NCBI GenBank assembly: GCA_902606075.1
Contig: CACLEU010000001.1
Location: 16,356-80,355 of the forward strand
DNA length: 64,000 nucleotides
Direction: 5' to 3'
Source of the DNA: an uncultured Pelagibacteraceae bacterium
GTDB taxonomy: Bacteria > Pseudomonadota > Alphaproteobacteria > Pelagibacterales > Pelagibacteraceae
Shown: in pieces, positions 16,084 to 31,179 of the stretch
Position numbering within the stretch: position 1 is the first letter of the stretch
How the letters are laid out: every line of letters starts with the position of its first letter
Position numbers and translations under genes: made by a program
Notes under the pieces: generated by a model
What the model was told of the DNA's origin: nothing
Seen by the model: only the letters and a program-made list of their open reading frames with translations
Databases searched by the model: none

Positions 16084-16833
16084 ATGACAAATTTAAATTA
16101 TTTTATAGTTGGAAAACATCCGGTGACAGAAGCACTTAAAAACCCCAAAAGAAAGGTGCTCAGAGTTTTTTTAACTGAGGAAAGTAAAAAAACTATAAAT
16201 CGAGAAAACCAAAATATAAATCTATTGAAGAATGTAAAAGTTTATTTCAAAACAAAAAAAGAACTTGATAAATATTGTAAAAATGAACAAATCTTGCATC
16301 AAGGTTTTGTTGCTGAAATTGAAAAATTAGAATACCCAAACTTAAAAGATTTTATTAAAGGTAAAAATAATATTAACTTAATTTGTTTGCAAGGTGTAAC
16401 AGATCCAAGGAATATAGGATCAGTAATAAGAAGCGCAGTATCATTTGATATTGATGGCTTGATTGTTAAAGAAAGAAATTTTCCAGAAGTTAGTAAATCA
16501 ATGTATAAATCTAGTAGCGGCAGTATAGAATATATTAATATTTTTAAAGTATCAAATATTAACACTACACTTAAATTTTTAAGAGAAAATAACTTTTGGG
16601 TATATGGATTTGACTCAACAGCAAAAAAAGATTTTACTGACATAAGTTGGAAAGGAAATAATATACTATTATTTGGCTCAGAAGGATCAGGAATAAATCA
16701 AAAAACAAATAATTATGTGGATTTTAATGTTAATATAAAAATTAATAATAAAATTGAAAGTCTTAATATCTCAAATAGCGCTGCTATAGTATTTCATTAC
16801 ATTAAAAAATTAAAATTAGTTCAACTTAAATAA
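16084..16833 (+). CDS. rlmB: 23S rRNA (Gm2251) 2'-O-methyltransferase, SpoU/TrmH family
   Basis: GKHPVTEAL, HQG, VTDPRNIGSVIRSA, FGSEGSG, ESLNISNSAA. Confidence 0.9.
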   Translation: MTNLNYFIVGKHPVTEALKNPKRKVLRVFLTEESKKTINRENQNINLLKNVKVYFKTKKELDKYCKNEQILHQGFVAEIEKLEYPNLKDFIKGKNNINLICLQGVTDPRNIGSVIRSAVSFDIDGLIVKERNFPEVSKSMYKSSSGSIEYINIFKVSNINTTLKFLRENNFWVYGFDSTAKKDFTDISWKGNNILLFGSEGSGINQKTNNYVDFNVNIKINNKIESLNISNSAAIVFHYIKKLKLVQLK

Positions 16834-18234
16834 CTTTGCTTCAACTAAATATTTTTTTTTGACTTCTTTTAATTTCCATTTTTTTGTCTCTTTAACATTG
16901 CAATCAATACTTTTATGAGGTTTATAACATAAGAACCAAAAACTATTTGCATTTTTAGGTATATTTTTATCGTATTTAATTATATTTAAATTCTTTTTAA
17001 TATTCTCATCTAAATTCTTGATATAATTAAATACTAATTCAGAATCTGGGTACAGTTCTTTAATAACAATATTTTTGTCAGAACTATACTCTTTTAAGTA
17101 TTCTATCATATTAGTAAATTCTGGTTTAGTATTTTTTCTCCCAAAAATTTCTAAGTAATGATTAAACAAACTTGAGACAATTAAAAATATAATTATAAAA
17201 TATTTAATTTTCTTTGATCTTATTTCATTAGATAAACATGATATTAATATTAATACGGGTATAAATATAAATATAATATATCTGTCATGTAAAACAGGTG
17301 TTTTGATTAAACCATAAGCAAAGGGAAGTAGGTATGAAAATATAAAAATTAAAACTAGTAAAGAATAATTTTTATTAAAAATTATTATTTTCCTATTATA
17401 AAATATTAAAAAAAACAAAGTAAATAAATAAATATATCCCATTATTTTTGAGCCAAAAAATCTTGGAAAATACAAACCATCAACAACATTAGTTAAATCA
17501 GAGGAAAGCATATAACTAGAAAAGGAAATTTGATAAATTAAGTAATTATAGTTAAATAACAAATAGAGAAAAATAATTGGTAAATAAGAAATAATTATTA
17601 GATTGTTTTTTTTATTAAAGTAAAAAATTAATAATAACGTATGTGCAATTTGAGAGAACAAAATTATTAAAGAAAATGGGTTTGTCGAGTAATTTAACAC
17701 AGAGATAATTACAAAGGCAAATGTTGTTGAATAACTGCTAAATTTATTTTTCATTACTTTATCAGAAATGAAACAATATAAAAAAATATTAATTATACTT
17801 AACATTAACAGAAGTGAATATGGTCTTACTTCTTGAGAATACTTTATAATGTAAATACTAATACTTGCTAAAAAAGTTGTTAGTAAAAAAGAGTTATCTT
17901 TTTTTACAAAGTAAGAAAGTATTCCAAAAAAAAATAAAGAAATTGAACCAAAAAAAAAAGGAAGTAATCTAGCGGTATTAGGCTCATATTCTGTAAAGTA
18001 TAAAAATTCTTTTAAAATTAAATTAAATAAAAAAGGATTATGAAAATCTGATTTTTTTTGACGTAAAATTGTTTCCTCTAATGATAAGCTAGGGTCGGCT
18101 ACCCAAAAGCTATTCATTTCGTCTAACCAAAAATTTTCAAAATGAAGCTGATACCGTATTGTAAATATTCCAATAAAAACTATAACAAAATAAAAAATTA
18201 GAGATTTTTTTTTTATAATTTCACTCATAATCAA
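16816..18234 (-). CDS. GT-C fold membrane glycosyltransferase (GT39/ArnT-like)
   Basis: N-terminal FWLDE, HNPFL, ARL, YSQEVRPYSL, many TM helices, DRY. Confidence 0.75.
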   Translation of the reverse strand: MIMSEIIKKKSLIFYFVIVFIGIFTIRYQLHFENFWLDEMNSFWVADPSLSLEETILRQKKSDFHNPFLFNLILKEFLYFTEYEPNTARLLPFFFGSISLFFFGILSYFVKKDNSFLLTTFLASISIYIIKYSQEVRPYSLLLMLSIINIFLYCFISDKVMKNKFSSYSTTFAFVIISVLNYSTNPFSLIILFSQIAHTLLLIFYFNKKNNLIIISYLPIIFLYLLFNYNYLIYQISFSSYMLSSDLTNVVDGLYFPRFFGSKIMGYIYLFTLFFLIFYNRKIIIFNKNYSLLVLIFIFSYLLPFAYGLIKTPVLHDRYIIFIFIPVLILISCLSNEIRSKKIKYFIIIFLIVSSLFNHYLEIFGRKNTKPEFTNMIEYLKEYSSDKNIVIKELYPDSELVFNYIKNLDENIKKNLNIIKYDKNIPKNANSFWFLCYKPHKSIDCNVKETKKWKLKEVKKKYLVEAKLFKLN

Positions 18235-18293
18235 ATAAAGAATATCAAAATTTAATAAAAATTAGAAATATAATTATTTTTATTATTGTTCAT

Positions 18294-18312
18294 ACCGACA
18301 AGAAACCGACAA
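18294..18312. repeat. Direct repeat ACCGACAA x2 at 11-bp period
   Basis: ACCGACAAGAA-ACCGACAA at 18294 and 18305 in an otherwise very AT-rich spacer. Confidence 0.6.
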
Positions 18313-18330
18313 ATTAAAAAATTTATTCAT

Positions 18331-18942
18331 TTAATTTAAAATATTAATAATACTTATTTTAATAGTTTCACTTATTTTGATGGTCCCTTCTTTATTTGGA
18401 TGAATTCCATCTTTTAGATTTAAGCTTGGATTAAGTGCTACTCCCTCAAGAAGAAATGGGATTAAAGGTAAATTATATTTTTTTGACAATTTCGGATAAA
18501 TATCATCAAACTCTTTTTTATATTTTTTTCCAATAGTACTTGGTGCAACCATACCAGCTAAAATGATTTTAATTTTTTTATTTTTAGCAATATTTATTAT
18601 TTGTTCTAAATTTTTTTTTGTTTCGTCTGGCTGAATTCCCCTGAGCATATCATTAGCTCCTAATCCTAAAATCATTAAATCTATTCCTGGTTCTGATAAA
18701 CTCCAATCAACTCTATTCAATCCACCTGATGACGTACTTCCAGAAACACTTCCATTAATAACTTCAATATTTAAACCAGCTTTCTTAAGATTGTTTTCTA
18801 AAACTATTGATAAATGATGTTCTTTAGGTAATCCATATCCAGCCATCAAACTATCACCAAATAGAACTACCTTTTCTATTGCACTTGCGTTTATGTGCAC
18901 TAGAAAGATTATTAAAATTTTTATAAATATAGTTTTACTCAT
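18331..18942 (-). CDS. tesA: GDSL/SGNH arylesterase (TesA-like)
   Basis: FGDSL, NGSVSGSTS, LGANDMLRG, DGIHPN; start reassigned to ATG 18942 (MSKTIF..., signal peptide). Confidence 0.85.
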   Translation of the reverse strand: MSKTIFIKILIIFLVHINASAIEKVVLFGDSLMAGYGLPKEHHLSIVLENNLKKAGLNIEVINGSVSGSTSSGGLNRVDWSLSEPGIDLMILGLGANDMLRGIQPDETKKNLEQIINIAKNKKIKIILAGMVAPSTIGKKYKKEFDDIYPKLSKKYNLPLIPFLLEGVALNPSLNLKDGIHPNKEGTIKISETIKISIINILN

Positions 18943-19606
18943 GAGTACCCTTCTTAAATTAAAAAAAATAAACCTTAAATACCAAACTGGTAAAGATAAT
19001 ATCAATATTTTAAGGAATATTGATTTAAATATTAAGAAAAAAGAAACTGTTTCTGTTGTTGGGGAAAGTGGCTCAGGAAAAACAAGTTTAATCATGTTAA
19101 TAGGGGGTTTGGAGAAACCTAACTCAGGTAAAATAATTTTCCAGGATCAAGAAATTACAGGTCTTAGTGAAGATGAGGTATCTGAGATTAGAAAGAAAAA
19201 TATTGGAATAATTTTTCAGTCGTTTTATTTAATTCCTAATTATACAGCGGTTGAAAATGTTGCACTTACACTTGAGCTCAATAATTTTAAAAATCCAGAT
19301 AAAGAAGCAAAGATTTTATTAGATCGTTTTGCTTTGAAACATCGTTTTAATAATCTTCCAGGTCAATTATCAGGTGGTGAGCAACAAAGAGTTGCTATCG
19401 CCAGAGCAATTGCAATGAAACCAGAATTAATTTTAGCTGATGAGCCAACTGGAAACTTAGATACTGAAAATTCTATTATGATTGCAAATATTTTATTTAA
19501 ATATGTAAAAGAAGAAGGCTCTTCTTTAATCATGGTAACTCATGACACTAAACTTGCTAATAAAACTAAAAGAAAAATAAAAATTAAAGATGGAAAAATT
19601 AAATAA
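18941..19606 (+). CDS. ABC transporter ATP-binding protein (YbbA/LolD family)
   Basis: GESGSGKT, LSGGEQQRVAIARA, ADEPTGNLD, VTHD; start reassigned to ATG 18941. Confidence 0.92.
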   Translation: MSTLLKLKKINLKYQTGKDNINILRNIDLNIKKKETVSVVGESGSGKTSLIMLIGGLEKPNSGKIIFQDQEITGLSEDEVSEIRKKNIGIIFQSFYLIPNYTAVENVALTLELNNFKNPDKEAKILLDRFALKHRFNNLPGQLSGGEQQRVAIARAIAMKPELILADEPTGNLDTENSIMIANILFKYVKEEGSSLIMVTHDTKLANKTKRKIKIKDGKIK

Positions 19607-22124
19607 TCCTTCAGAATTTAGTTTGATTTTAAAATATGCTTTAAAAGACTTAAGCAGAAATTATTATAAAATATCTAGTATCATTGTTACGCTATTTATA
19701 AGTCTTTTTATCTTAAGTGCTATTTTCACAATTGAAGATAGTCTTAAAAAAGAATTAAATGATAATGCCAAAGCACTTTTAGGTGGAGATTTAGAGATTG
19801 ATTACAATCGTAATGTAGGAGATTTAGATCTAGTTAATCAAGTTAAAGAATTTGCAACTGTTTCTCAAATGATTGAGTTTAGTACTATGCTTTCAACATC
19901 AGGGAGAGAAAAAAATAAATCATTATTTACTAGAATTAAAACTGTGGATGAAAATTATCCTTTATATGGAAATGTTGTTTATGAGCCAATTGGTGCTTAT
20001 GAAAGAATGCAAAGAGAACCTTATTCTATCCTTATCAATGAAAGTTTATCAAAAACCCTTAATATAAAAATTAATGAAAAGGTAAAAGTTCAAGATCAAA
20101 ACTTTACAGTAATTGGAATTATTAAATCAGTACCGGATGTAAGTGGATTTATTGCATTTGGAGATTGGGCTTTAGCGGGAAAACAAACATTAGAAATCTT
20201 GAAACTAAATGGAATTGGAAGCTTTTTAAACTATGAATACAAAGTAAAATTTAACGAAAAAGATAATCCAGAAGAAATCGAAAAACGAATTGAGGAAATT
20301 TTTAAAGACGATCAAAAAGTAAAGCTTAGATATCCTGAAAATTCTGCTAGTGGAATAAAGAGAATAATTAATAATTTTTCTCAATTTTTATCTCTTGTAT
20401 CAATCAGTGCAATGTTAATTGCAGGCATTGGAGTCGCAAATACTCTACTTTCTTTTATCAATCAAAACAATATGTCTATTGCTGTAAGAAAGGCGGTTGG
20501 CTTTTATTCAGGCAATATTAAAACATTATATTACCTTCAGTTATTTATACTTTTATTCATCATCACTGTAGTTGCCTATGGATCAAGTTTTTTAATTGTA
20601 CCAATAGTAGATAAATATCTATCTGATGGATTGGGATTGAATGTTCATCCAGTGTTTTCATTACTTAATTTTTTAAAAATATTTTTAGTGGGTTTGTTAG
20701 TTCTTGTAATTTTTACTATTCCAACAATCAGTTCTATAGATCAAGTAAAAGCCTCTAATTTATTTAGAAACGTATTTCAAAACCTTCAATTTTTTTATTC
20801 TAAGAGATCAGTTGTTCTAAGCTTTTTTTTATTATCTATCTTAATTTTTTTATTCACTATTGGATCTGAACAACCTTCTTATAGCTTGGGTTACTTTGTG
20901 GCTTTTTTTGTTTGTTTAATTGTATTTTTCTTACTTTCAAAATTAATCATTTTTTTTCTTAAAAAATTCAAATCTAGTCCAATAATTTCTTTAAAAGTTT
21001 CAATTAAAAATATTACTCAGACAAAAAGTATAACCCCTATTACAGTTATGTCTCTTGGTCTAGGCGTTACTTTGTTATTAACTTTAGCTTTAGTTGGCAC
21101 AAATTTTCAAAGAGAAATTGCTAAATCTATTCCTGATATTGCACCTGATTATTTCTTTGTAGGTATTCAAAAAGGAGAAAGAGAGAAATTTGAACAAGGT
21201 ATTTTAAATATGGATCCAAGTGCATCTATTGAAATTGTACCAATGGTTTCATCTGGTATAGTAAAAATTAACGGTATTGATCCTAATACTTATATTAAAC
21301 CAGATAATGACAGTTACTGGGTTATTGGTAGTGAACGAAGATCTTCGTGGGTAGAAAACGTGCCTGGAGATAACTTAATTTTAGATGGCGAATGGTGGGA
21401 TTTATCAAAGCCAAATCAACTTCAAATATCTTTAGATTCAAAAGTTGCTAAGGATTTTAACATCCTGTTAGGTGATATCTTTACTTTAAATGTTTATGGA
21501 CGTGAAATTGATGGGAAAGTAGTAAATTTTAGAGAAGTCGATTATCGAGATTTAAGTATCAACTTTGCAATGTTATTTAACCCTCAATTTGCAAAAAATA
21601 TTCCACATGAGTATTTGGCTACTGCAAAATTTAGATCAAATAAGTTTGATGAAACTGAAATGCTTGAAATCATGCCAAGTTTATCAATGATTAAAATTGC
21701 AGATTATTTATCAAAAGTTACAGCCGTTTTAAATAAGGTATTTATTGCGGTTACATTAATTTCAGCAATTACAATTGTTATAGGCTTAATCGTAATTTCA
21801 AGTGCAATTATGGTTCAAGGAAAAGTAAAGGAATATCAAAATTTGGTTTTCAAAATTTTAGGTTTTTCAAAAAAACAAATTATTTTTTCATCTTTAATTG
21901 AATTCGTCATTATCTTTAAATCTGTAATTTTGATTGCAGTATTCTTTGCTGTGATTGGTTCAAAATTTATAATAGAAAATATTTTTGAATTAATGTGGAT
22001 GTTTGACTTTAAGATTATAATTTATTTAGGACTTTCAATTGGTTTTGTTACCTTAGTTTTGATATTATTAACTAACTTAAAATATCTAAATCCTAAGGTT
22101 TATCCTCTAATAAGAAATCAATAA
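19590..22124 (+). CDS. ABC transporter permease (YbbP/FtsX-like, duplicated domain)
   Basis: ALLGGD, YPLYG, two FtsX-like TM sets, PDYFFVGIQ; tesA-ybbAP synteny. Confidence 0.85.
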   Translation: MEKLNNPSEFSLILKYALKDLSRNYYKISSIIVTLFISLFILSAIFTIEDSLKKELNDNAKALLGGDLEIDYNRNVGDLDLVNQVKEFATVSQMIEFSTMLSTSGREKNKSLFTRIKTVDENYPLYGNVVYEPIGAYERMQREPYSILINESLSKTLNIKINEKVKVQDQNFTVIGIIKSVPDVSGFIAFGDWALAGKQTLEILKLNGIGSFLNYEYKVKFNEKDNPEEIEKRIEEIFKDDQKVKLRYPENSASGIKRIINNFSQFLSLVSISAMLIAGIGVANTLLSFINQNNMSIAVRKAVGFYSGNIKTLYYLQLFILLFIITVVAYGSSFLIVPIVDKYLSDGLGLNVHPVFSLLNFLKIFLVGLLVLVIFTIPTISSIDQVKASNLFRNVFQNLQFFYSKRSVVLSFFLLSILIFLFTIGSEQPSYSLGYFVAFFVCLIVFFLLSKLIIFFLKKFKSSPIISLKVSIKNITQTKSITPITVMSLGLGVTLLLTLALVGTNFQREIAKSIPDIAPDYFFVGIQKGEREKFEQGILNMDPSASIEIVPMVSSGIVKINGIDPNTYIKPDNDSYWVIGSERRSSWVENVPGDNLILDGEWWDLSKPNQLQISLDSKVAKDFNILLGDIFTLNVYGREIDGKVVNFREVDYRDLSINFAMLFNPQFAKNIPHEYLATAKFRSNKFDETEMLEIMPSLSMIKIADYLSKVTAVLNKVFIAVTLISAITIVIGLIVISSAIMVQGKVKEYQNLVFKILGFSKKQIIFSSLIEFVIIFKSVILIAVFFAVIGSKFIIENIFELMWMFDFKIIIYLGLSIGFVTLVLILLTNLKYLNPKVYPLIRNQ

Positions 22125-22301: not shown

Positions 22302-22377
22302 GCCCTTGTAGCTCAGCTGGTAGAGCAATTGATTTGTAATCAATAGGTCCGCGGTTCGAATCCGTGCGGGGGCACCA
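22302..22377 (+). tRNA. tRNA-Thr(TGT)
   Basis: GCCCTTGTAGCTCAGCTGGTAGAGCAATTGATTTGTAATCAATAGGTCCGCGGTTCGAATCCGTGCGGGGGCACCA. Confidence 0.97.
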
Positions 22378-22440
22378 TCACTTAATAAAATCAACACTAA
22401 TTATTTTTGTAGAGTTATAGTTTAGTTTAATTTTGTAATC

Positions 22441-22471
22441 GATTGTGCCAGGATTGTGCCAGGATTGTGCC
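22441..22471 (+). repeat. Tandem GATTGTGCCAG x2.8 (putative integrase arm-type sites)
   Basis: GATTGTGCCAG GATTGTGCCAG GATTGTGCC read directly. Confidence 0.85.
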
Positions 22472-22487
22472 GTGATCAAGTAGTCAT

Positions 22488-23033
22488 TTAATCATAATAA
22501 ATGTACTTTAATATTCTATTTGCACTATTTGAACACGGAGATTTAAAACAACCTTCAAAAATTATTCTTGAGTTTTTATTTTCAAAACACGAAATTAAAA
22601 AACCTAAATTGGTATCGCTTGATGCGTCTTCATTACATCCTGCAGATGAGTCGTTCGTATAAAGATTTCTATCAAATTGATGAAACAGATTCTTTGTTGG
22701 TTGTCCATTTCCATAAGTATTATTTAAACCATAAAAGTTAGATATAATTCCACTTACTCTATTAAAATCACTTGAGTTGCCAGCTAATAAAACTTCACAA
22801 GTAGTTTTATCCCAAAGTGCTCTAGCAGTAGAGTTTATTTCACATAAAGCTTTCTCTGAAACCCAAGCTTTATAAATCATTTCAAAATTAGCTCTGCTAG
22901 TAGAAGATTTTGCAGCAGTTGTGTATCCACTATAAGCAACAGTTCCTACAGCAGCAAGGATACCGATGATTGCTACAACGACTAGAAGTTCTATTAATGT
23001 GAAACCCTTGCTATTGAATTTTATTTTTGACAC
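22488..23033 (-). CDS. Type IV pilin-like protein
   Basis: Prepilin motif KG|FTLIELLVVVAIIGILAAVG with Glu5; variable Cys-rich C-terminal region. Confidence 0.9.
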   Translation of the reverse strand: MSKIKFNSKGFTLIELLVVVAIIGILAAVGTVAYSGYTTAAKSSTSRANFEMIYKAWVSEKALCEINSTARALWDKTTCEVLLAGNSSDFNRVSGIISNFYGLNNTYGNGQPTKNLFHQFDRNLYTNDSSAGCNEDASSDTNLGFLISCFENKNSRIIFEGCFKSPCSNSANRILKYIYYD

Positions 23034-23368
23034 TGTAATTTACAAAAAACATTGAGGTCTTTCATAGTTAATCCGCCTCTAATACTTTGTTTGCATAAAT
23101 TTAAACATTCATAATCAATTCCATCTTTTACAAATGTATCTTTTAATGATTTATTATTTTTTGTATTAGTATCAGATCCAAAAACCTTATCTAATAAGTT
23201 TTTAGATTTATTTATAAACCCCTTGTTATTTATCTCATATTCGCTCTGCAAACACAGAACAAAGTCTCTCTTGTTCTCTTCATAATTAAAAATTTTATTG
23301 CAAGTTTCTGCATTAGATTTACCAGCCAACAACAAACCCAGAACCACGATCCCTAAAAGTTTTTTCAT
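23021..23368 (-). CDS. Hypothetical secreted protein with six Cys
   Basis: Signal peptide MKKLLGIVVLGLLLAGKSNA; ECLNLC..FCKLQC. Confidence 0.7.
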   Translation of the reverse strand: MKKLLGIVVLGLLLAGKSNAETCNKIFNYEENKRDFVLCLQSEYEINNKGFINKSKNLLDKVFGSDTNTKNNKSLKDTFVKDGIDYECLNLCKQSIRGGLTMKDLNVFCKLQCQK

Positions 23369-23683
23369 TTAATGATTTGTATAAGCATCCGGATAGTTAG
23401 TTAAATGTTCATCTGAAATTGGTATCATTACAGCACTTTCTACAACAGCACCTGCTTCTCTTCTTTTCTCGGCAAGTTCCTTATCATCTTTAAAAGCTTG
23501 GAGTGCTTCCATATTTGGAAATTGCATTACTGTATGAAGTTTTGTCGGGTCATCTTTTTGTGTGCCTGCAAAAACAAATTTTATTCCATGCTCTTTTAAT
23601 TTTCCATCCTGTGCATAGACCATCTCTTTCCATGTTTTAAATCCTTTAGTAATTGTAATTTCACCTTTTACTAATATTGCCAT
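23369..23683 (-). CDS. Small dimeric alpha-beta barrel protein (DUF3764-like)
   Basis: FKTW..GIK..GTQKDDPTK..MQFPNMEAL..RREAGA pattern; strong SD (AAGGAG) upstream. Confidence 0.6.
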   Translation of the reverse strand: MAILVKGEITITKGFKTWKEMVYAQDGKLKEHGIKFVFAGTQKDDPTKLHTVMQFPNMEALQAFKDDKELAEKRREAGAVVESAVMIPISDEHLTNYPDAYTNH

Positions 23684-23736
23684 ATGAATCTCCTTATTTA
23701 ATTTTTAAAATTATTTAATTATTAAAACCCTACCAC

Positions 23737-23754
23737 TGTGCCAGGATTGTGACC
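23737..23754 (+). repeat. TGTGCCAGGAT-TGTGACC, second copy of the Thr-element repeat
   Basis: Same unit and orientation as 22441-22471; 53 bp before the tRNA fragment. Confidence 0.8.
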
Positions 23755-23807
23755 ATACCAAATATATTTTAAAAATATTGTTGCAAACAAATGTTTATTT
23801 AAACTTT

Positions 23808-23850
23808 AGCAATTGATTTGTAATCAATAGGTCCGCAGTTCGAGTCCATG
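23808..23850 (+). pseudogene. Partial tRNA-Thr copy (att-like)
   Basis: AGCAATTGATTTGTAATCAATAGGTCCGC 29-bp exact match, then degenerate T-arm; no acceptor stem or CCA. Confidence 0.9.
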
Positions 23851-23869
23851 AGGTCACAATAATAAAAAT

Positions 23870-24556
23870 TTAAAATTTATACACTTCTTTTAGTATTTTT
23901 TTTTTTTTAAAGTCAGGTTCTCTTCCAAAAATATCAAAAAAAATGATTTTCAAAATATCTTTATAGTGTCGAAATCCCTTTTCATTACCGATATTAGAAA
24001 ATTCAAAACTCGATAAGTTTATTTTTGAAGGGTCTTTAATTGAAGATATTTTAATGAAAGCTGTTCCATTATTGATAAAAATTTTTAATATTAAAAAGTT
24101 TTTATCTTTTTTTTTTTGAGGCCATATTTTATCAGGTAATTTTTCATTAATCTTTTTTGCAACTCCTATATTATCTTCAATAATAATTTTTTCTTTATTT
24201 TCATCATTCCCTTGAGTTTCATTTTTTTTTACTACTAACTCTAAATAGAAATTTGGATCTTCTATTACTAAATTATTAATAATAATCAATTCATCTAAAA
24301 AATATGTCATTAGATCAATATTGAAATTAATTTCATCAGACTCAAAAATATTTTTATAATTAATTGGGTTAGAATTAATTATTTTTAAACCTTTAATATT
24401 TATTAAATTAGGATATTCGAAACTAAATTCCTTAAAAGTTACATCTTTTTCTACCCACTTGGATAATTTATAATTTATATAGCTTCCTATTATTTTGTCA
24501 TGAAATACTACTAAAATTAATATAATTATGGCACTAATTCCAACAATTTTTTTCAC
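23870..24556 (-). CDS. Hypothetical membrane-anchored protein (AsmA-like beta-rich)
   Basis: N-terminal TM; IKGLKIIN, IIINNLVIEDPNFYLE pattern; GTG start. Confidence 0.55.
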   Translation of the reverse strand: MKKIVGISAIIILILVVFHDKIIGSYINYKLSKWVEKDVTFKEFSFEYPNLINIKGLKIINSNPINYKNIFESDEINFNIDLMTYFLDELIIINNLVIEDPNFYLELVVKKNETQGNDENKEKIIIEDNIGVAKKINEKLPDKIWPQKKKDKNFLILKIFINNGTAFIKISSIKDPSKINLSSFEFSNIGNEKGFRHYKDILKIIFFDIFGREPDFKKKKILKEVYKF

Positions 24557-24557
24557 T

Positions 24558-24640
24558 TTAAAATGTTTCTTTTCTCAATTGTTTTATTTTTATTTGAAGA
24601 CTTCTATTAGAGTCATGAAGTAAATTAAAGTTTATTTTTT
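24558..24640 (-). pseudogene. Relic duplicate of the nadK 3' end
   Basis: 24593-24640 matches 25298-25345 at 45/48; translates KINFNLLHDSNRSLQIKIKQLRKETF* versus nadK KIKFNLLYDSNRSLQKKIKLEQLKNETS*. Confidence 0.88.
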
Positions 24641-25270
24641 GGGTAATTTTAAATAAAAATTTTTAACAAAATTCTTAAAAGTTTTTTTTTTAAAAATAAC
24701 CTTTTTCTCTTCTAATAATTTAAAATTTTCTTTTTTAGTAATCACAGCATATCCAGAACCCTCAAAAAAAAACTCTAAGCTAAAATTCTCTATATTAGAA
24801 TTATAAATTTCTAGAACTTTATTAAAAGTATTATAATTAGTCATAGCAACATAAGAGTTTTCTTTTTTTTTATTAACAACATAAGGTAACCAACTCACAT
24901 CATCTATTATACATATCCCTCCTACTTTTAAAAATTTATAATAATTGAAAAATACTTTTTTTACATGATTTGGTTCATGTAGAGAATCTATAAATAATAT
25001 ATCTAGTGGTTTCTTAATTTTAGGGTTAATTATATCAAATTCATCATCACTAGCTTTAATAAATTCCCATCTTGAATTATTGCTAACTTGTGAACAATCA
25101 ATTATATCAACGGAGATTAAATTACCGTTATTTAGATCACATATTTCTAAGAATATTTTTGTTGAATTTCCTTGAGCTACACCAAGTTCTAATATTTGTA
25201 TGTTATTAATGTTGCTAATCTTTTTTTTTAAAAATTCATGTTTGCTATTTAAAATATTATGATGTCTCAT
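24632..25270 (-). CDS. Class I SAM-dependent methyltransferase (Methyltransf_24-like)
   Basis: ILELGVAQGNST, SVDI, DILFIDSLH, LKVGGICIIDD; likely start MRHH at 25270. Confidence 0.85.
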   Translation of the reverse strand: MRHHNILNSKHEFLKKKISNINNIQILELGVAQGNSTKIFLEICDLNNGNLISVDIIDCSQVSNNSRWEFIKASDDEFDIINPKIKKPLDILFIDSLHEPNHVKKVFFNYYKFLKVGGICIIDDVSWLPYVVNKKKENSYVAMTNYNTFNKVLEIYNSNIENFSLEFFFEGSGYAVITKKENFKLLEEKKVIFKKKTFKNFVKNFYLKLPKK

Positions 25271-26018
25271 TTTTAAGCTGTTCAAGTTTTATTTTTTTTT
25301 GAAGACTTCTATTAGAGTCATATAGTAAATTAAACTTTATTTTTTTATTAATCTTAATAACAATTTTCTTTGCATTGCGAACTTCATTGTTATCAGCTAC
25401 TGCACTGACAGGTCTTTTGATTGGATTTAAGTTATTTATATTTATAACTGATTTATCACTAATAACTTTACCCTTCCATCTTCTTGGTCGAAAAGCACTA
25501 ATTGGTGCAATTGAGAGTTTTTTTGAATTTAAACTTAAAATTGGACCATAAACAGACATATTATAGGCGGTACTTCCAGCTGGAGTAGATACTAAAATTC
25601 CATCAGAGATTAAATTTTTGATAATTTTTTGTTTACCAGAATAAACACTTAAATTTGCAGCTTGTCTACTTTGTCTTAAAATTGACACTTCATTAATTGC
25701 TATATATTTTTTTGTATTATTTTTATTATTCTTAACAGTCATTTCCAATGGAGAAATTGAAACTGTTTTTGATTTAGTAAAATTTCTCACAAAATTTTTT
25801 GATGAAAATTTGTTCATCAAAAAACCATAGTTACCTGAATTTACACCATAAAATAATCTTTTAGATTTTTTATTTTTTTTTAATGTTTGAAGCATAAAAC
25901 CATCGCCCCCAATCACTAATATTGTATTTGATTTTTTTAATTTAATTTTTTTTAATATGTTTAATAAAGATTTTTTAATCCTTAACGAGCTTAAATTTTT
26001 ATCTGAAATAATTTTCAT
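25257..26018 (-). CDS. nadK: NAD kinase
   Basis: GGDGFML, GFL, NE, DGILVSTPAGSTAY. Confidence 0.95.
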   Translation of the reverse strand: MKIISDKNLSSLRIKKSLLNILKKIKLKKSNTILVIGGDGFMLQTLKKNKKSKRLFYGVNSGNYGFLMNKFSSKNFVRNFTKSKTVSISPLEMTVKNNKNNTKKYIAINEVSILRQSRQAANLSVYSGKQKIIKNLISDGILVSTPAGSTAYNMSVYGPILSLNSKKLSIAPISAFRPRRWKGKVISDKSVININNLNPIKRPVSAVADNNEVRNAKKIVIKINKKIKFNLLYDSNRSLQKKIKLEQLKNETS

Positions 26019-26996: not shown

Positions 26997-27082
26997 TGGT
27001 GCCCTCGGCCAGACTCGAACTGGCACTCCATAAATGGCAAGGATTTTAAGTCCTTTGTGTCTACCAATTTCACCACGAGGGC
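26997..27082 (-). tRNA. tRNA-Leu(TAA)
   Basis: GCCCTCGTGGTGAAATTGGTAGACACAAAGGACTTAAAATCCTT, variable arm, GTTCGAGTC, GGGCACCA; 86 nt. Confidence 0.97.
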
Positions 27083-27166
27083 ATTAATGAATTTCATGAG
27101 TATTTATGCTAATATTTATAATTCAACAAGTGTAATAAGTAAAATTTTTTTTATTTATCTCTTTAG

Positions 27167-27184
27167 GTACAAGTCTAGTACAAG
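27167..27184 (+). repeat. GTACAAG-N4-GTACAAG putative arm-site pair
   Basis: GTACAAGTCTAGTACAAG; related pairs at 29376/29387, 29434/29445, 29702/29713 and 31092/31103. Confidence 0.75.
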
Positions 27185-27222
27185 TTTTCCCATATTATCC
27201 TATAGAGTTTTAATTAAATTTA

Positions 27223-29352
27223 TTAAAATGTTCTTGCAACTTCTATGGTTGCACCATAATCAGGTATTTCTTTCATCAAGCTATAATTTGAGCTCATTCT
27301 GATATCAAAACCATTTAAATCTCTCTTATAACTTAAAGATGCATTGTCATTATCTAAACTCATAGCATATTCGATATCGTCAGTTGGTATATAACCAAAA
27401 CCTAAATATAAAGTATCGCTATGAGCATTATCACTTTGATTTCTTTCATAGATAGTCATTACAGAAAAACCGTTTTCAGTAATTAAATCAAATCCAATGT
27501 TTGCTCTTATATTCTTTGAGTCTTGATCAATAGATTTAGTATATTCTGTAGTTTCAGAAAGATAACGATATTTGGCATCTGAAGATGGGCTAAAATCTAA
27601 ACCAATCTCTAAACCTCCATGTGGTTTAAATGTCATAGTGTTTAAATTAATAATATCGCTTACTGTAAAACCGGTGGATATCATTCCTGTTTCAATTATT
27701 TGTTTATTGTACACCAATGCAGTAGTTCCTTTTTCTCTATATTTGGATAGTTCTGTATAGCTAAGATCAATTCTTAAATTAGGTACAATATTAAAGTTTT
27801 CTTTTTTATATGTTTTTAAATAATTAATTGATCCGAATACTTGTGCTCCGTCTCTTTCTCCAGTTCTAGTATATAAATCACCTTTTCTAACATGATCAGT
27901 CTTCAAAGTACTAATTCCAAGAATACCCTCAGTAAATCTTTTATCATCATGAAGAAAAGTTCCATAAAGAGATAAACTATAAGAATCAGTATCTAAAGAT
28001 GTCCCAGATGTACCTATATCAACATCATCATTGCCAAATCGAAGAGCATATCCATACATTTTGTTTTCACTAATTTTTTTATCCATTCCAATTGTAATAC
28101 CTTTACTATCAATTTTTTTTGATGATGAAGAAGATGTGTCACCTACTCTACCAACACTAACGCTACCTTCGCTCCAAAATGACCAATTATCAGATATTTT
28201 ATCTAAAATATCATTTGTTTTGTTAGATACTGGAATAACTTTTGAAAGAGATGCCATCATTGAATTTGAAAAGTTAAATTTAATATTTTGATTACTTAAT
28301 TTATCTTCATTTCTATAACGTCTTAACCAATACATACGATTAAGAACTGGAGTGCTTGCTTGAATAGCAATTTGTTTAGCTGTTGCTGTTTGAGATTCAA
28401 TTGAACTTGAAATATCTTTACCTTCATCACTTGTATCAGCCGGATCATCACAAGCACCATCAACTACACTCCAATTACAGCTTAGATTAAATTCAAAAAC
28501 TTTATTATTGGTATTACCAATGAAAAACATTTTACTTCCATCATGACTAAACGCAACTTCTCTTGCATCAGTATCATGAGAATTTACATTATAGGTACCT
28601 TCAAGGGAGTAAGTAGAAACATCATAAGGTGTAGTTAATTTAAACTGAGAAACCTGATTGGTTGTATTATCAATGGTATACATTTTAGTACCATCGTGAT
28701 TAAAAGTAACTCCATCTAAGTAAGTGTGAAAAGAACTTAAGTCTTCAGTATTAAGATGTGTAACTCCTGAGCTAAGATCAAATGCTGTATCTAGTGAATA
28801 TTCATTAAGGTGATGTTGAGTATTATTTCCTACACCAGCAATAATCATTCTGGTACCATCATTATTAAATGCAACGGAAGTTAATCTTACTTCTTTACTA
28901 GAAACATCATATCTACCCTCAAGTGAAGCAGTTGAAACATCAAATGCAGTGGTTAGTGACCAGTAATCTATATTATTAGAACCATGGTCAGCAATAAACA
29001 TTTTTGTTCCATCGTTATTAAACACTACTTGGTTTGGTATAAGTGTATCACCACCTCCATGAGTTGCTACTACATGTACTGTTTTAGTATTGTTTAAGGT
29101 TGCTGTTGAAATATCATAAGCAGTAGTTAATACATATTCGTAAACATTATCAGCTTGTAGGCCACCACCATTCTTATCATATTGTGTAGTATACATTTTG
29201 GTACCATCATTATTAAATGTTAATCCAAATTCTCCGTTGTCTGCATTTATTGATTTACTTCGTACAAAGGTTGGCTCCGCTATAGCTTTAGAAAGAAATA
29301 AAGCTAAAAAAAATACAATATAATGAATTTTAAAAAATTTTTTTACAACCAT
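27223..29352 (-). CDS. Autotransporter-like outer membrane protein with five ~50-aa beta-propeller-type repeats
   Basis: Signal peptide; 5 repeats FNNDGTKM..Y.LTTA(F/Y)DVSTA; C-terminal beta barrel starting WSFWSEG, terminal Phe. Confidence 0.82.
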   Translation of the reverse strand: MVVKKFFKIHYIVFFLALFLSKAIAEPTFVRSKSINADNGEFGLTFNNDGTKMYTTQYDKNGGGLQADNVYEYVLTTAYDISTATLNNTKTVHVVATHGGGDTLIPNQVVFNNDGTKMFIADHGSNNIDYWSLTTAFDVSTASLEGRYDVSSKEVRLTSVAFNNDGTRMIIAGVGNNTQHHLNEYSLDTAFDLSSGVTHLNTEDLSSFHTYLDGVTFNHDGTKMYTIDNTTNQVSQFKLTTPYDVSTYSLEGTYNVNSHDTDAREVAFSHDGSKMFFIGNTNNKVFEFNLSCNWSVVDGACDDPADTSDEGKDISSSIESQTATAKQIAIQASTPVLNRMYWLRRYRNEDKLSNQNIKFNFSNSMMASLSKVIPVSNKTNDILDKISDNWSFWSEGSVSVGRVGDTSSSSSKKIDSKGITIGMDKKISENKMYGYALRFGNDDVDIGTSGTSLDTDSYSLSLYGTFLHDDKRFTEGILGISTLKTDHVRKGDLYTRTGERDGAQVFGSINYLKTYKKENFNIVPNLRIDLSYTELSKYREKGTTALVYNKQIIETGMISTGFTVSDIINLNTMTFKPHGGLEIGLDFSPSSDAKYRYLSETTEYTKSIDQDSKNIRANIGFDLITENGFSVMTIYERNQSDNAHSDTLYLGFGYIPTDDIEYAMSLDNDNASLSYKRDLNGFDIRMSSNYSLMKEIPDYGATIEVARTF

Positions 29353-29433
29353 TGATGTATTATAAACTTATTAAAGTTCAGGTTTAGTGTAAGACTACCC
29401 AGAATGGGTTATGGCTTTATTTTATCCCTTTAA

Positions 29434-29460
29434 GTACAAGTTCAGTACAAGTCTGTTCAA
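29434..29460 (+). repeat. GTACAAG x2 plus degenerate third copy
   Basis: GTACAAGTTCA GTACAAGTCT GTTCAA. Confidence 0.75.
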
Positions 29461-29530
29461 ATTAATTAAGTTTTATTTTCTAATCTTAATAGAAAGCTAA
29501 ATTAAAGTTATGTGATTTTATAGGAGGTTT

Positions 29531-29560
29531 TAGACTGTCTTGGACTACTATGGACTGACT
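29531..29560 (+). repeat. 10-bp-period T(A/G)GACT repeats
   Basis: TAGACTGTCT TGGACTACTA TGGACTGACT. Confidence 0.7.
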
Positions 29561-29579
29561 TTAACTTCTATCCCTCGGC

Positions 29580-29618
29580 TTTTAAGTCCTTTGTGTCTAC
29601 CAATTTCACCACGAGGGC
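29580..29618 (-). pseudogene. 5' half of tRNA-Leu (att-like); its upstream region is also duplicated to ~29720
   Basis: Identical to 27044-27082; ends at the anticodon loop; no T-arm or CCA. Confidence 0.92.
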
Positions 29619-29754
29619 ATTAATGAATTTCATGAGTGTTTATGCTAATATTTATAATTCAACAAGAGGAATAAGTAAAATTTTTTATTTTATCTCTCTA
29701 TGTACGAGGTATGTACGAGAGATCCTATATAATCCCTCATAAAATCATAAATAA

Positions 29755-31071
29755 TTAATTTAATAAATATTTATTTACGTTTTCCTTAAATATTTTTAAA
29801 GTTTTTTCGTAAGCAACTTGATTTTTTTTATTAAGTGATGATCCGTATCCCCAACAAATTTTCATTGAGTGATCATAAAGTTTCTTGTCTCCTTTATTAC
29901 CAAACCATCCACCATTAGCTGAAATATTAAACCATTTACTTTTATCTTTAGGTCTTACCCAAATCTGTCCATTATTATCAGTATATACTCTGCATTCAGA
30001 ACTTATCTTTATTCCATCTTCAAAATTAGATCCTGTCTTATCATAAAAATGGGTTGTGTTTTTGAAAACAATAATTTGTTTGTTTGTTTTCTTTAGATCT
30101 TTTTGAGTCACAATATATTCTTCACAAAGATTATGTGGTAGATAATCCTTATCGCCCATTAGTATCAATAATGGAGCATCTGTAGTTTTAGTATTCTCAT
30201 AATGATAACAGAAGGGATATAATGCGAGATGTAATTTAAAATTATTTTTTGGTTTGATGACATCTAAATTAAAATAATTTTGAGTTTCAATTGCAACAGT
30301 TCCTCCCCAACTCCACCCCATTATACCAATTTTAGTCGAGTCAACGCTTTTGTTTTTAGATAATATATCTAAAGCTCTTAACGAATCTAAAGCTCCTACA
30401 TGAGGAGATATCCATGATATTTTTTTTGATCTATCATAAAAGTTTTTATCGTAACCTCTTGATTTAAATATAAATGGTTCAAATGTGGCAATACACATGT
30501 CATGCAATATATGTTTGTAATCAGTCATAATTCTTCCACCTGAATGGTGAATCAAAAACATAACCGGATATTTTTTTATACCTTTACATTTTTTTTGGAC
30601 AGGAAATATAAGGTTACCAAAGCCTTTAATCTTTTTATTATCTTCAAGTCCATCAAATATATCATCTTGTATAAAGATATCATTTGTATTAAATTTTATT
30701 TTTTTAACTTTGCTTTTCGCTTTTTTGCAATCTGTAATGACATCTTCAATTTTCTTGTTACCATATTTTTTATTAATTGAATTTTTGTGGTAGTGAGTGC
30801 TTTTGACTGGAAATGCATCATTGTGAGTAGCGTACCAACGCCAATCATTTTTTTTTCCTTTTCTTAAATGAACACTTAATAATTCTCCTTTTGATAAAGG
30901 GATTGTGATTGAAGCCCACATTCCATTATCCTTAACCCATTCGCTGGTTATTCTAACATTTTGGTTTACTTTACAAACTTCCAATATTTCATTTTTTAAC
31001 CATTTAAATGGAACAGCGTAAGAATTGGTAGAAAATATACTAAAAATTAAAAGATAATATAAAATTTTCAT
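29755..31071 (-). CDS. Secreted alpha/beta hydrolase (dienelactone hydrolase-like) with N-terminal extra domain
   Basis: Signal peptide, HHSGG, KIGIMGWSWGG nucleophile elbow, ALYPFC, LILMGDKD, TTHFYD. Confidence 0.8.
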   Translation of the reverse strand: MKILYYLLIFSIFSTNSYAVPFKWLKNEILEVCKVNQNVRITSEWVKDNGMWASITIPLSKGELLSVHLRKGKKNDWRWYATHNDAFPVKSTHYHKNSINKKYGNKKIEDVITDCKKAKSKVKKIKFNTNDIFIQDDIFDGLEDNKKIKGFGNLIFPVQKKCKGIKKYPVMFLIHHSGGRIMTDYKHILHDMCIATFEPFIFKSRGYDKNFYDRSKKISWISPHVGALDSLRALDILSKNKSVDSTKIGIMGWSWGGTVAIETQNYFNLDVIKPKNNFKLHLALYPFCYHYENTKTTDAPLLILMGDKDYLPHNLCEEYIVTQKDLKKTNKQIIVFKNTTHFYDKTGSNFEDGIKISSECRVYTDNNGQIWVRPKDKSKWFNISANGGWFGNKGDKKLYDHSMKICWGYGSSLNKKNQVAYEKTLKIFKENVNKYLLN

Positions 31072-31179
31072 ATTTAATTTTATACTTTTCTGTGTGAGAC
31101 TTGTACGAGAATCTTAGAAATCATTAAACAAAGAATGATTAATTTTATTATTTTGATCATTATTCTAGTTTTCTATAAT

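Follow-up and report, generated by a model that had tools for sequence, protein, structure and literature searches.

The DNA analysed here, referred to as the window, is a stretch of 64,000 nucleotides from an uncultured Pelagibacteraceae bacterium (GenBank assembly GCA_902606075.1, labelled G000 below; contig CACLEU010000001.1, positions 16,356 to 80,355 of the forward strand), and this report concerns a small gene cassette inserted in the 3' half of its tRNA-Thr(UGU) gene. The intact tRNA gene at 22302, the sole tRNA-Thr(UGU) copy detected in the G000 assembly, is separated from a partial copy of itself by an insert of 1430 bp (22378-23807). The repeated core is the 3' part of tRNA-Thr from about position 23 (22324 onward), and the resulting direct repeat (22324-22369 and 23808-23853) is identical at 42 of 46 positions with a start-to-start distance of 1484 bp. 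The anticodon arm ATTGA-TTTGTAA-TCAAT, a palindromic stem-loop, falls within the 29 nt that match exactly. Short direct repeats with a period of 11 bp were present at both ends of the insert: one set begins 63 nt past the end of tRNA-Thr and the other, with TGTGCCAGGATTGTGACC at 23737-23754, lies 53 nt ahead of the distal tRNA copy. The 15-mer TGTGCCAGGATTGTG, allowing at most two mismatches, occurred three times in the window, each time inside an end of the insert, as against 0.07 occurrences expected by chance, and none of 100 shuffles reached three; no further occurrence was found elsewhere in the 825-kb assembly, which is 76% complete. Toward its 3' side the distal copy carries changes at tRNA positions 52, 59, 63 and 66 as well as a different end, and retains neither the T stem nor the 3' strand of the acceptor stem; in most relatives its counterpart extends to position 76 with 98-100% identity. 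An earlier reading of the window from its letters alone (the sequence-only reading) had described the tRNA gene with 11-bp repeats at both ends, the anticodon arm inside the exact copy and the decay of the distal 3' end, and all of these were borne out. The features of the locus are listed in Table 1.

Table 1. Features of the tRNA-Thr locus and its right flank. Positions are those of the window; arm and att (attachment site) designations follow the interpretation proposed in the text.
Feature	Position	Strand	Basis or remark
Intact tRNA-Thr(UGU), proposed to form attL	22302..22377	+	ARAGORN, tRNA-Thr(tgt)
Exact 29-nt core, in both tRNA copies	22324..22352 = 23808..23836	+	Repeat search
P' arm leader	22378..22440	+	First ~35 nt (tcactcaataaaatcaac...) kept in family-A cassettes of many genomes
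P' arm-type repeats, 11-bp period	22441..22471	+	GATTGTGCCAG at 22441 and 22452, then partial unit GATTGTGCC at 22463-22471
Conserved block GTGATCAAGTAGTC closing the P' arm	22472..22485	+	Similar block after the P' repeats of the L096 attP
Cargo 1: type IV pilin-like protein, 181 aa	22488..23033	-	Prepilin N-terminal methylation motif
Cargo 2: 115-aa protein with N-terminal signal peptide	23021..23368	-	Without Pfam or NCBIfam family
43-nt word for the signal peptide MKKLLGIVVLGLLL of the 115-aa open reading frame	23328..23370	-	Cassette comparison
Cargo 3: DUF3764 protein, 104 aa	23369..23683	-	Pfam
P arm-type repeats, two units, 11-bp period	23735..23756	+	ACTGTGCCAGG and ATTGTGACCAT
P-arm spacer, 51 nt, conserved	23757..23807	+	Repeats to core; family-A signature ...ttgttgcaaacaaatgtttatttaaacttt
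Proposed attR: partial tRNA-Thr copy, positions 23-68, 46 nt	23808..23853	+	29 nt exact, then decayed 3' part
Older island material between cassette and nadK	23854..25256	-	228-aa open reading frame, nadK pseudo-fragment, methyltransferase
228-aa open reading frame	23870-24556	-	In older island material
nadK 3'-end pseudo-fragment	24540-24668	-	72-75% identical to nadK ends of relatives
Methyltransferase gene	24632-25285	-	Abuts the real nadK stop at 25257; pseudo-fragment lies upstream
NAD kinase gene (nadK), convergent, conserved right flank	25257..26018	-	Comparison with relatives

The cargo of the cassette consists of three co-oriented open reading frames (ORFs) on the minus strand. The 181-aa protein begins, as type IV pilins and pseudopilins do, with a prepilin cleavage/methylation motif and then a hydrophobic helix, and matched PF07963 at 1.5e-9 and TIGR02532 with 35 bits against a cut-off of 16. 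Neither a Pfam scan of the three ORFs nor tblastn revealed an integrase in the window cassette, so it does not encode one of its own.

We surveyed insertions at this site in 141 genomes of the genus with at least 90% completeness, in addition to G000 (below, labels beginning with G denote genomes and those beginning with L denote loci or contigs). A 24-nt core of the tRNA was present in 131 of the 141 genomes; it occurred at least twice in 37 of them, three or four times in three, and six times in G167, with spacings between copies of 0.7 to 28 kb. In 30 loci that were fetched, the extra copies started at tRNA position 22-32 and nearly always reached position 76, with 94-100% identity. The carriers, as seen in a scan of the genome collection, belong to Pelagibacteraceae / Ca. 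Pelagibacter and include HIMB4 (G087), Uisw_106 and many single-cell genomes. The sequence-only reading had proposed that alleles without the insert should be sought in relatives, and such empty sites exist in G213, G205 and G058, where tRNA-Thr ends 4-14 nt from the nadK stop. The locus has the form of a tycheposon-type island, i.e. tandem insertions adjacent to a tRNA gene and divided by partial tRNA copies.

Comparison of about 80 inter-copy intervals, mostly of 0.6-3 kb, revealed conserved ends and highly variable cargo, with an integrase in one interval only. Two families of ends were distinguished at tRNA-Thr. In family A, which includes the window cassette, the tRNA side shows a conserved leader, an AT-rich stretch of about 30 nt, the 11-bp repeat in three units and then a block that is again conserved (GTGATCAAGTAGTC in the window); at the far end come two units of the 11-bp repeat, a spacer of about 50 nt, also conserved, and finally the tRNA copy. 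Members of family B are mostly 4.6-10 kb long (L106, L109, L115, L116, L119 and G087:C1:556175-566993, the last covered by L099 and L149) and carry perfect arm words of 22-24 nt on both sides, of the types GTAGTGAATTT, GTAGTCTTTTT and GAAGTGAATTT. Nearly all cargo differed between elements, about 100 ORFs being distributed over 78 protein clusters, and almost every ORF of family A reads from the P arm toward the tRNA. Cargo recognised by Pfam included a methyltransferase, an MrcB-like/HNH protein, a polysaccharide lyase, a type I restriction system and a carbamoyltransferase, the last two among family B cargo. Pilin-like genes recur as cargo of the hotspot (cluster 0, nine members). The array of G167 (G167:C1:478952-505668; L112, L113), which has its six partial tRNA-Thr copies spread across 27 kb, contains six pilin-like paralogues: an 8.7-kb interval has five of them, and the adjacent 0.7-kb interval has the sixth.

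The arm words vary by cassette lineage, yet agree between both ends of one cassette. At least five types (GTGCCAG, GTGACGC, GTTGCCA, GCTACCA and GTGACTA/GTGAATA) were seen in the cassette family. For 33 elements, the longest word common to both ends averaged 11.06 nt when an element's own ends were compared and 7.08 nt in mismatched pairs, and none of 10000 permutations reached the observed mean. The repeat also proved to be tied to tRNA-Thr outside the window, a linkage that the sequence-only reading had singled out for checking: in 26 of 30 metagenome contigs containing the 20-mer GATTGTGCCAGGATTGTGCC, this word starts 64 nt past the end of a SAR11 tRNA-Thr or of a partial copy, and it is linked to tRNA-Thr likewise in four other genomes of the genus. 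The same 20-mer lies about 90 nt from a tRNA 5' end in two GC-rich, non-SAR11 contigs (L177:1536-1555 and L178:423-442); in L178 the word precedes a DEAD/HNH helicase-nuclease and a RAMP-family protein.

Integrases were searched for throughout the family. When 33 elements from 30 genomes were compared by tblastn with the integrases of the viral contig L096 (IMGVR_UViG_3300017731_002668) and of HIMB4, the only match was the integrase of HIMB4 itself, which is 448 aa long and encoded in the third element of HIMB4, a 10.7-kb member of family B, near the tRNA-proximal end. The same array of HIMB4 also includes a cassette with GTGCCAG arms and an intact distal copy. Loci of 51 further Pelagibacteraceae species, found through the family-A junction, provided 49 intervals of 600-4568 bp (median about 1.3 kb), and none of these matched any of eight diverse tyrosine integrases in tblastn. 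Similarly, no match to the L096 and HIMB4 integrases was obtained in 30 metagenome contigs found through the arm word. The single PF00589 protein of G000 is a divergent Xer-like recombinase, scoring 71 bits with the XerD model against a cut-off of 330, and tblastn of the assembly with the eight diverse tyrosine integrases detected nothing beyond it and no member of the L096 family. A 369-aa ORF of element 2 in L099 was considered as an integrase and rejected, being a methyltransferase. Sampled ORFs of the larger family-B elements, also considered as possible integrases, turned out by Pfam to be a type I restriction system, a carbamoyltransferase, a weak lipase-like match or nothing recognisable.

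The architecture of the cassette ends was found again beside real integrases. In L096, positions 21-76 of tRNA-Thr are present at 100% identity with 11-bp repeats on both sides and an adjoining PF00589 integrase. The integrase side carries GTTGCGGACATAGTGCGGACAG, with the integrase start 12 nt from the repeats, and the other side carries ATTGCGGACAGATTGCGGATC followed by a block resembling the closing block of family A. By this arrangement L096 holds a real attP for the SAR11 tRNA-Thr, and it agrees with the claim of the sequence-only reading that recombination between the two tRNA copies would give an arms-core-arms junction, i.e. an attP. It is the only viral contig identified as targeting SAR11 tRNA-Thr: among viral contigs with the 28-nt tRNA core, 29 of 31 had full tRNA-Thr genes of unrelated phages and were set aside, L087 had a full SAR11-type tRNA-Thr, and L096 alone had an attP. 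We then examined 50 loci of L096-family integrases in viral contigs that include the upstream DNA. A word of at least 7 nt repeated at a spacing of 10-12 nt was present within 180 nt upstream of the integrase start in 33 of the 50, as compared to 1 and 2 of 50 in controls placed within genes and 1.4 in shuffles. All ten L096-family integrases in the SAR11 genus, the tRNA targets of which include Asn, Arg and Val, showed one order: start codon, 12-22 nt, two 11-bp repeats, 40-60 nt, tRNA core. A word identical to that of the window stands beside an integrase in L043/L242, from a GC-rich host, where 14 nt separate TGTGCCAGGATTGTGCCA from the integrase start, the 3' half of a tRNA lies about 50 nt past that word and CTGTGCCAGAATTGTGCCA about 110 nt beyond the tRNA half; this integrase is 34% identical to that of L096 over the full length including the N-terminus. 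Thus, the link of the repeat to integrases, which had been left for checking, was found both for this word and for the general layout. L174, in which the 20-mer occurs beside an integrase and a tRNA, was not counted as support because the N-terminus of its integrase is unrelated to the L096 family.

We consider it probable, on the whole of this evidence, that 22378-23807 is a small, integrase-less, att-bounded cassette in the 3' half of tRNA-Thr(UGU) which is moved in trans by a phage-type integrase, and that its ends are the two halves of a lambda-type attP, with the P' arm beside the tRNA and the P arm beside the partial copy. The P arm of family A corresponds to the integrase-proximal arm, with cargo at the place of the integrase, since the integrase-bearing relatives show the same order: in these, 12-22 nt separate the P-arm repeats from the start codon of the integrase, and in the cassettes a cargo gene takes up that place. 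A phage or a larger element would provide an L096-family tyrosine integrase in trans, the N-terminal domain of this enzyme would bind the 11-bp words, and strand exchange would take place inside the palindromic anticodon stem-loop. We provisionally place the crossover region at 22324..22352, because tRNA-targeting tyrosine integrases have a known preference for the anticodon loop. On integration the tRNA would be rebuilt with the 3' tRNA segment of the cassette, and the old 3' segment of the host would be moved to the far end. Since the cargo occupies the place of the integrase and almost all of it points away from the P arm, its transcription probably starts from what used to be the promoter region of the integrase. 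The signs of such mobilisation are indirect, namely the tandem arrays and the higher identity of cassettes as compared to their flanks.

This higher identity was seen for the DUF3764 module. At the nucleotide level, the segment 23328-23853, comprising the DUF3764 gene, the P arm and the tRNA copy, matches G261 with 92.8% identity and 23364-23835 matches G307 with 94.7%; for nadK the identity is 76.5% to G307 and 71-81% across the genus. The contrast shows that the module has been exchanged between species, but does not in itself indicate the mechanism. DUF3764 proteins at 98% identity were also encoded in the metagenome contigs L162, with an intact distal copy, and L180, whose distal copy is slightly altered. 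On its left side, the module common to the window cassette and G261 breaks off at the 43-nt word encoding MKKLLGIVVLGLLL, which recurs at 93-100% identity in more than 15 otherwise unrelated cassettes. In the five genomes checked the word is confined to cassette arrays, and it is absent from the empty-site genome G213. It may serve as a handle for homologous shuffling of secreted cargo genes.

The sequence-only reading had further suggested that clean excision might now damage the tRNA and so lock the element in. The suggestion is a reasonable one: the distal copy is decayed here, it is intact in relatives that carry the DUF3764 module, and the locus has the sole tRNA-Thr(UGU) of the assembly. 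Excision through the anticodon loop would fuse the 5' portion of the tRNA with the decayed stretch 23837-23853. As this would destroy the T arm and acceptor stem of the only tRNA-Thr(UGU), the window copy is probably fixed in the genome; the argument is not valid for relatives with an intact distal copy.

Several observations weigh against a cassette that is moved in trans. No integrase pairing the GTGCCAG word with the SAR11 tRNA-Thr core was found, and the identical word of L043 comes from a GC-rich host rather than from SAR11. The GCGGACA arm word of L096 had no match in 58 near-complete (at least 98%) genomes of the genus, the 24-mer of the family-A P arm had none in viral contigs, and searching the isolate phage collection with family-A ends returned just unrelated tRNA-Thr genes. 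A simple scan of the P arm for a sigma-70-like promoter gave nothing convincing. As the G000 assembly is 76% complete, an integrase may be encoded in its missing part. The window copy itself may be inert owing to its decayed distal copy, and the matched end words could have been inherited from an ancestral attP without any present function. Because neither a paired integrase nor a viral signature nor a promoter was found, we infer, rather than observe, the supply of the integrase in trans, the present-day mobility of the family and the use of the former promoter.

An alternative is that the cassette is a dead relic, in which the integrase was deleted from a phage or island, the arm words are fossils and spread has occurred only by homologous recombination anchored in the tRNA, in other cassettes and in nadK. 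We regard this as unlikely. The failure of the searches to find a cognate integrase speaks for a relic, as do the decayed distal copies of the window, G307, L154 and L180 (slightly altered in L180), the absence of one arm or the mismatch of arms in several elements (e.g. L102, L108, L110, L114 and L122), and the mosaic cargo modules, whose breakpoint at a common 43-nt word resembles homologous recombination. However, about 80 intervals have retained the two arms together with a tRNA repeat of 47-54 nt (94-100% identity) in spite of near-total difference in cargo, and the repeat units within an arm of the window cassette are still mutually identical. Moreover, deletion from a phage cannot by itself place pilins, methyltransferases, a lyase and restriction genes between two arms.

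A different function of the 11-bp repeats was also considered, namely that they serve a transcription factor as operators, or a small replicon as iterons, and control expression or replication instead of recombination. In its favour, the P-arm repeats have the conserved spacer on one side and the start codon of the first cargo gene on the other, and their phasing equals one helical turn. Against it, the same words occur at the far end too, past the last gene, the cassette has no regulator or replication gene, and the identical layout surrounds tRNA cores beside integrases (the 33 of 50 loci above). Lambda-type integrases regulate themselves at such arm sites, and an operator role would supplement recombination, not substitute for it. 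This explanation is thus very improbable.

Nor do we give much credence to movement of the cassettes by the single Xer-like tyrosine recombinase of the host with no phage enzyme needed, which has hardly any probability in our assessment. A single Xer-like gene, conserved and divergent, was present in each genome checked, frequently without any other integrase, but Xer-dependent elements use dif instead of tRNA genes, the arms are built as in the L096 integrase family, and the one genome G167 contains cassettes with several arm words, among which one enzyme would not select lineage-specific matching. The five Pelagibacter genomes examined had one such gene each, and that of G000 (G000:C7:11913-12866; L238:614-1567) scored far under the cut-offs of both XerC and XerD.

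Chance similarity or an assembly artefact is practically negligible as an explanation: although 38 of 40 matches to the 15-mer in viral contigs lacked an integrase-family match and none of the 40 had a tRNA-Thr core, no shuffle reached the observed count in the window, and the same structure occurs in complete genomes and independent metagenomes. Most of those 40 viral matches appear to be chance, L043 being the informative exception among the two with an integrase-family match.

Beyond the single locus, we tentatively suggest, as a possibility that falls somewhat short of even likelihood, that SAR11 has a cassette system with integron-like logic built on phage att sites, in which integrase-less cassettes of 1-3 kb at several tRNA genes (Thr, Leu(UAA) and others) are inserted one after another by integrases of passing pelagiphages or of rare larger elements and fall into compatibility groups defined by their arm words. 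If this were true, it would be a main route for pilins, surface proteins and defence genes into and out of SAR11 genomes, and infection by phages would have a direct link to how the host population exchanges its surface and defence genes.

The cassette resembles several known systems without coinciding with any of them. As in the lambda-type attP of the L096 family and of SAR11 prophage-like elements, the core is taken from a tRNA, namely its 3' portion starting at the anticodon stem, direct repeats with an 11-bp period flank it, two repeats stand 12-22 nt from the first start codon, and integration leaves an intact tRNA and a displaced partial copy. Unlike elements of the L096 type, it is 1.4 kb in length, has a cargo gene at the place of the integrase and carries an arm word other than that of L096. 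The cis-mobilizable elements (CIMEs) found beside ICESt1/ICESt3 in Streptococcus thermophilus offer the closest parallel in logic: like them, the cassettes have att sites related to those of an integrase-bearing element, lack recombination and transfer genes, and form tandem arrays at a tRNA-type site. The SAR11 cassettes differ from CIMEs in host phylum and integrase family, are much smaller and far more numerous, and have several types of arm specificity and a uniform gene orientation.

Tycheposons of Prochlorococcus carry their own tyrosine recombinase and often a replication module, and integrase-less pieces of them are described as degenerate remnants (10.1101/2020.12.28.424599). Both systems have streamlined marine hosts, islands anchored at tRNA genes by successive integration and divided by partial tRNA copies, and cargo that includes genes for defence and nutrients, but the SAR11 cassettes have no recombinase of their own and keep a conserved cassette form. 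SAR11 genomic islands with partial tRNA repeats have already been published (Microbiome 2025, PMC11796062), and canonical mobile genetic elements were reported absent from them. These islands are the same phenomenon at lower resolution; to judge from the available text, the arm repeats, the matching of ends, the conserved ends, the replacement of the integrase by cargo and the candidate integrase family go beyond that account (PMC11796062). Pelagiphages of the HTVC019P type integrate into tRNA-Cys, tRNA-Leu and tRNA-Arg of SAR11 (bioRxiv 10.1101/410191). They likewise have a tyrosine integrase, an attP beside the integrase gene and an attB within SAR11 tRNA genes, and the cassettes described here differ in their tRNA-Thr target and in being about 1 kb long as compared to whole phage genomes (10.1101/410191). 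A conserved two-armed att on integrase-less cassettes, matched arm words and cargo in place of the integrase are not described in the accessible portions of these three reports (PMC11796062, 10.1101/410191 and 10.1101/2020.12.28.424599).

With integron cassettes the SAR11 cassettes have in common their small size, mostly with one to three co-oriented genes, their arrays at one site, variable cargo and the absence of their own recombinase. They differ in having neither attC nor attI nor an integron integrase, and each SAR11 cassette brings a full two-armed att and a tRNA segment; the sole PF00589 protein of G000 scored 27 bits with the integron integrase model against a cut-off of 265.

No bacterial group in the ocean is more abundant than SAR11, and its flexible gene pool is very large. 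How genes enter its genomes is the question addressed by these findings, and a defined cassette form makes it an experimental one: the cassette offers conserved ends, a predicted crossover site, predicted protein-binding words and a candidate enzyme in the L096 family, and HIMB4 is a carrier available in culture. The sequence signature can also be used to look for cassettes at other tRNA genes and in other streamlined plankton.

Inserted DNA also lies on either side of the cassette. As nadK is at 25257-26018, the stretch 23854-25256 is further, older island DNA, and its methyltransferase gene seems to have been inserted together with a duplication of the nadK terminus. On the left, tRNA-Thr of relatives usually adjoins a SpoU-type methylase region; in the window this region ends at about 16815, and about 5.4 kb are inserted ahead of the tRNA gene. 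The ORFs of this insertion (16816-22124) encode a GDSL lipase, an ABC ATPase together with a MacB/FtsX permease, and a 472-aa protein without known function; the permease gene of G213 is situated 290 kb from tRNA-Thr. A 12-nt near-copy of the anticodon loop at 22432-22443 was treated as chance because relatives do not keep it.

A tRNA-Leu(UAA) gene lies on the minus strand at 26997-27082, in a site 3.2 kb past the distal copy of the tRNA-Thr cassette. An exact 39-nt copy of its 5' part is present at 29580-29618, with another 160 nt of 88% identity upstream of that copy, and pairs of GTACRAG with 11-bp spacing occur nearby at 27167/27178, 29434/29445 and 29702/29713. The region 26997-31110 of the window thus has the look of a second cassette hotspot following the same logic, but with the 5' half of the tRNA restored.

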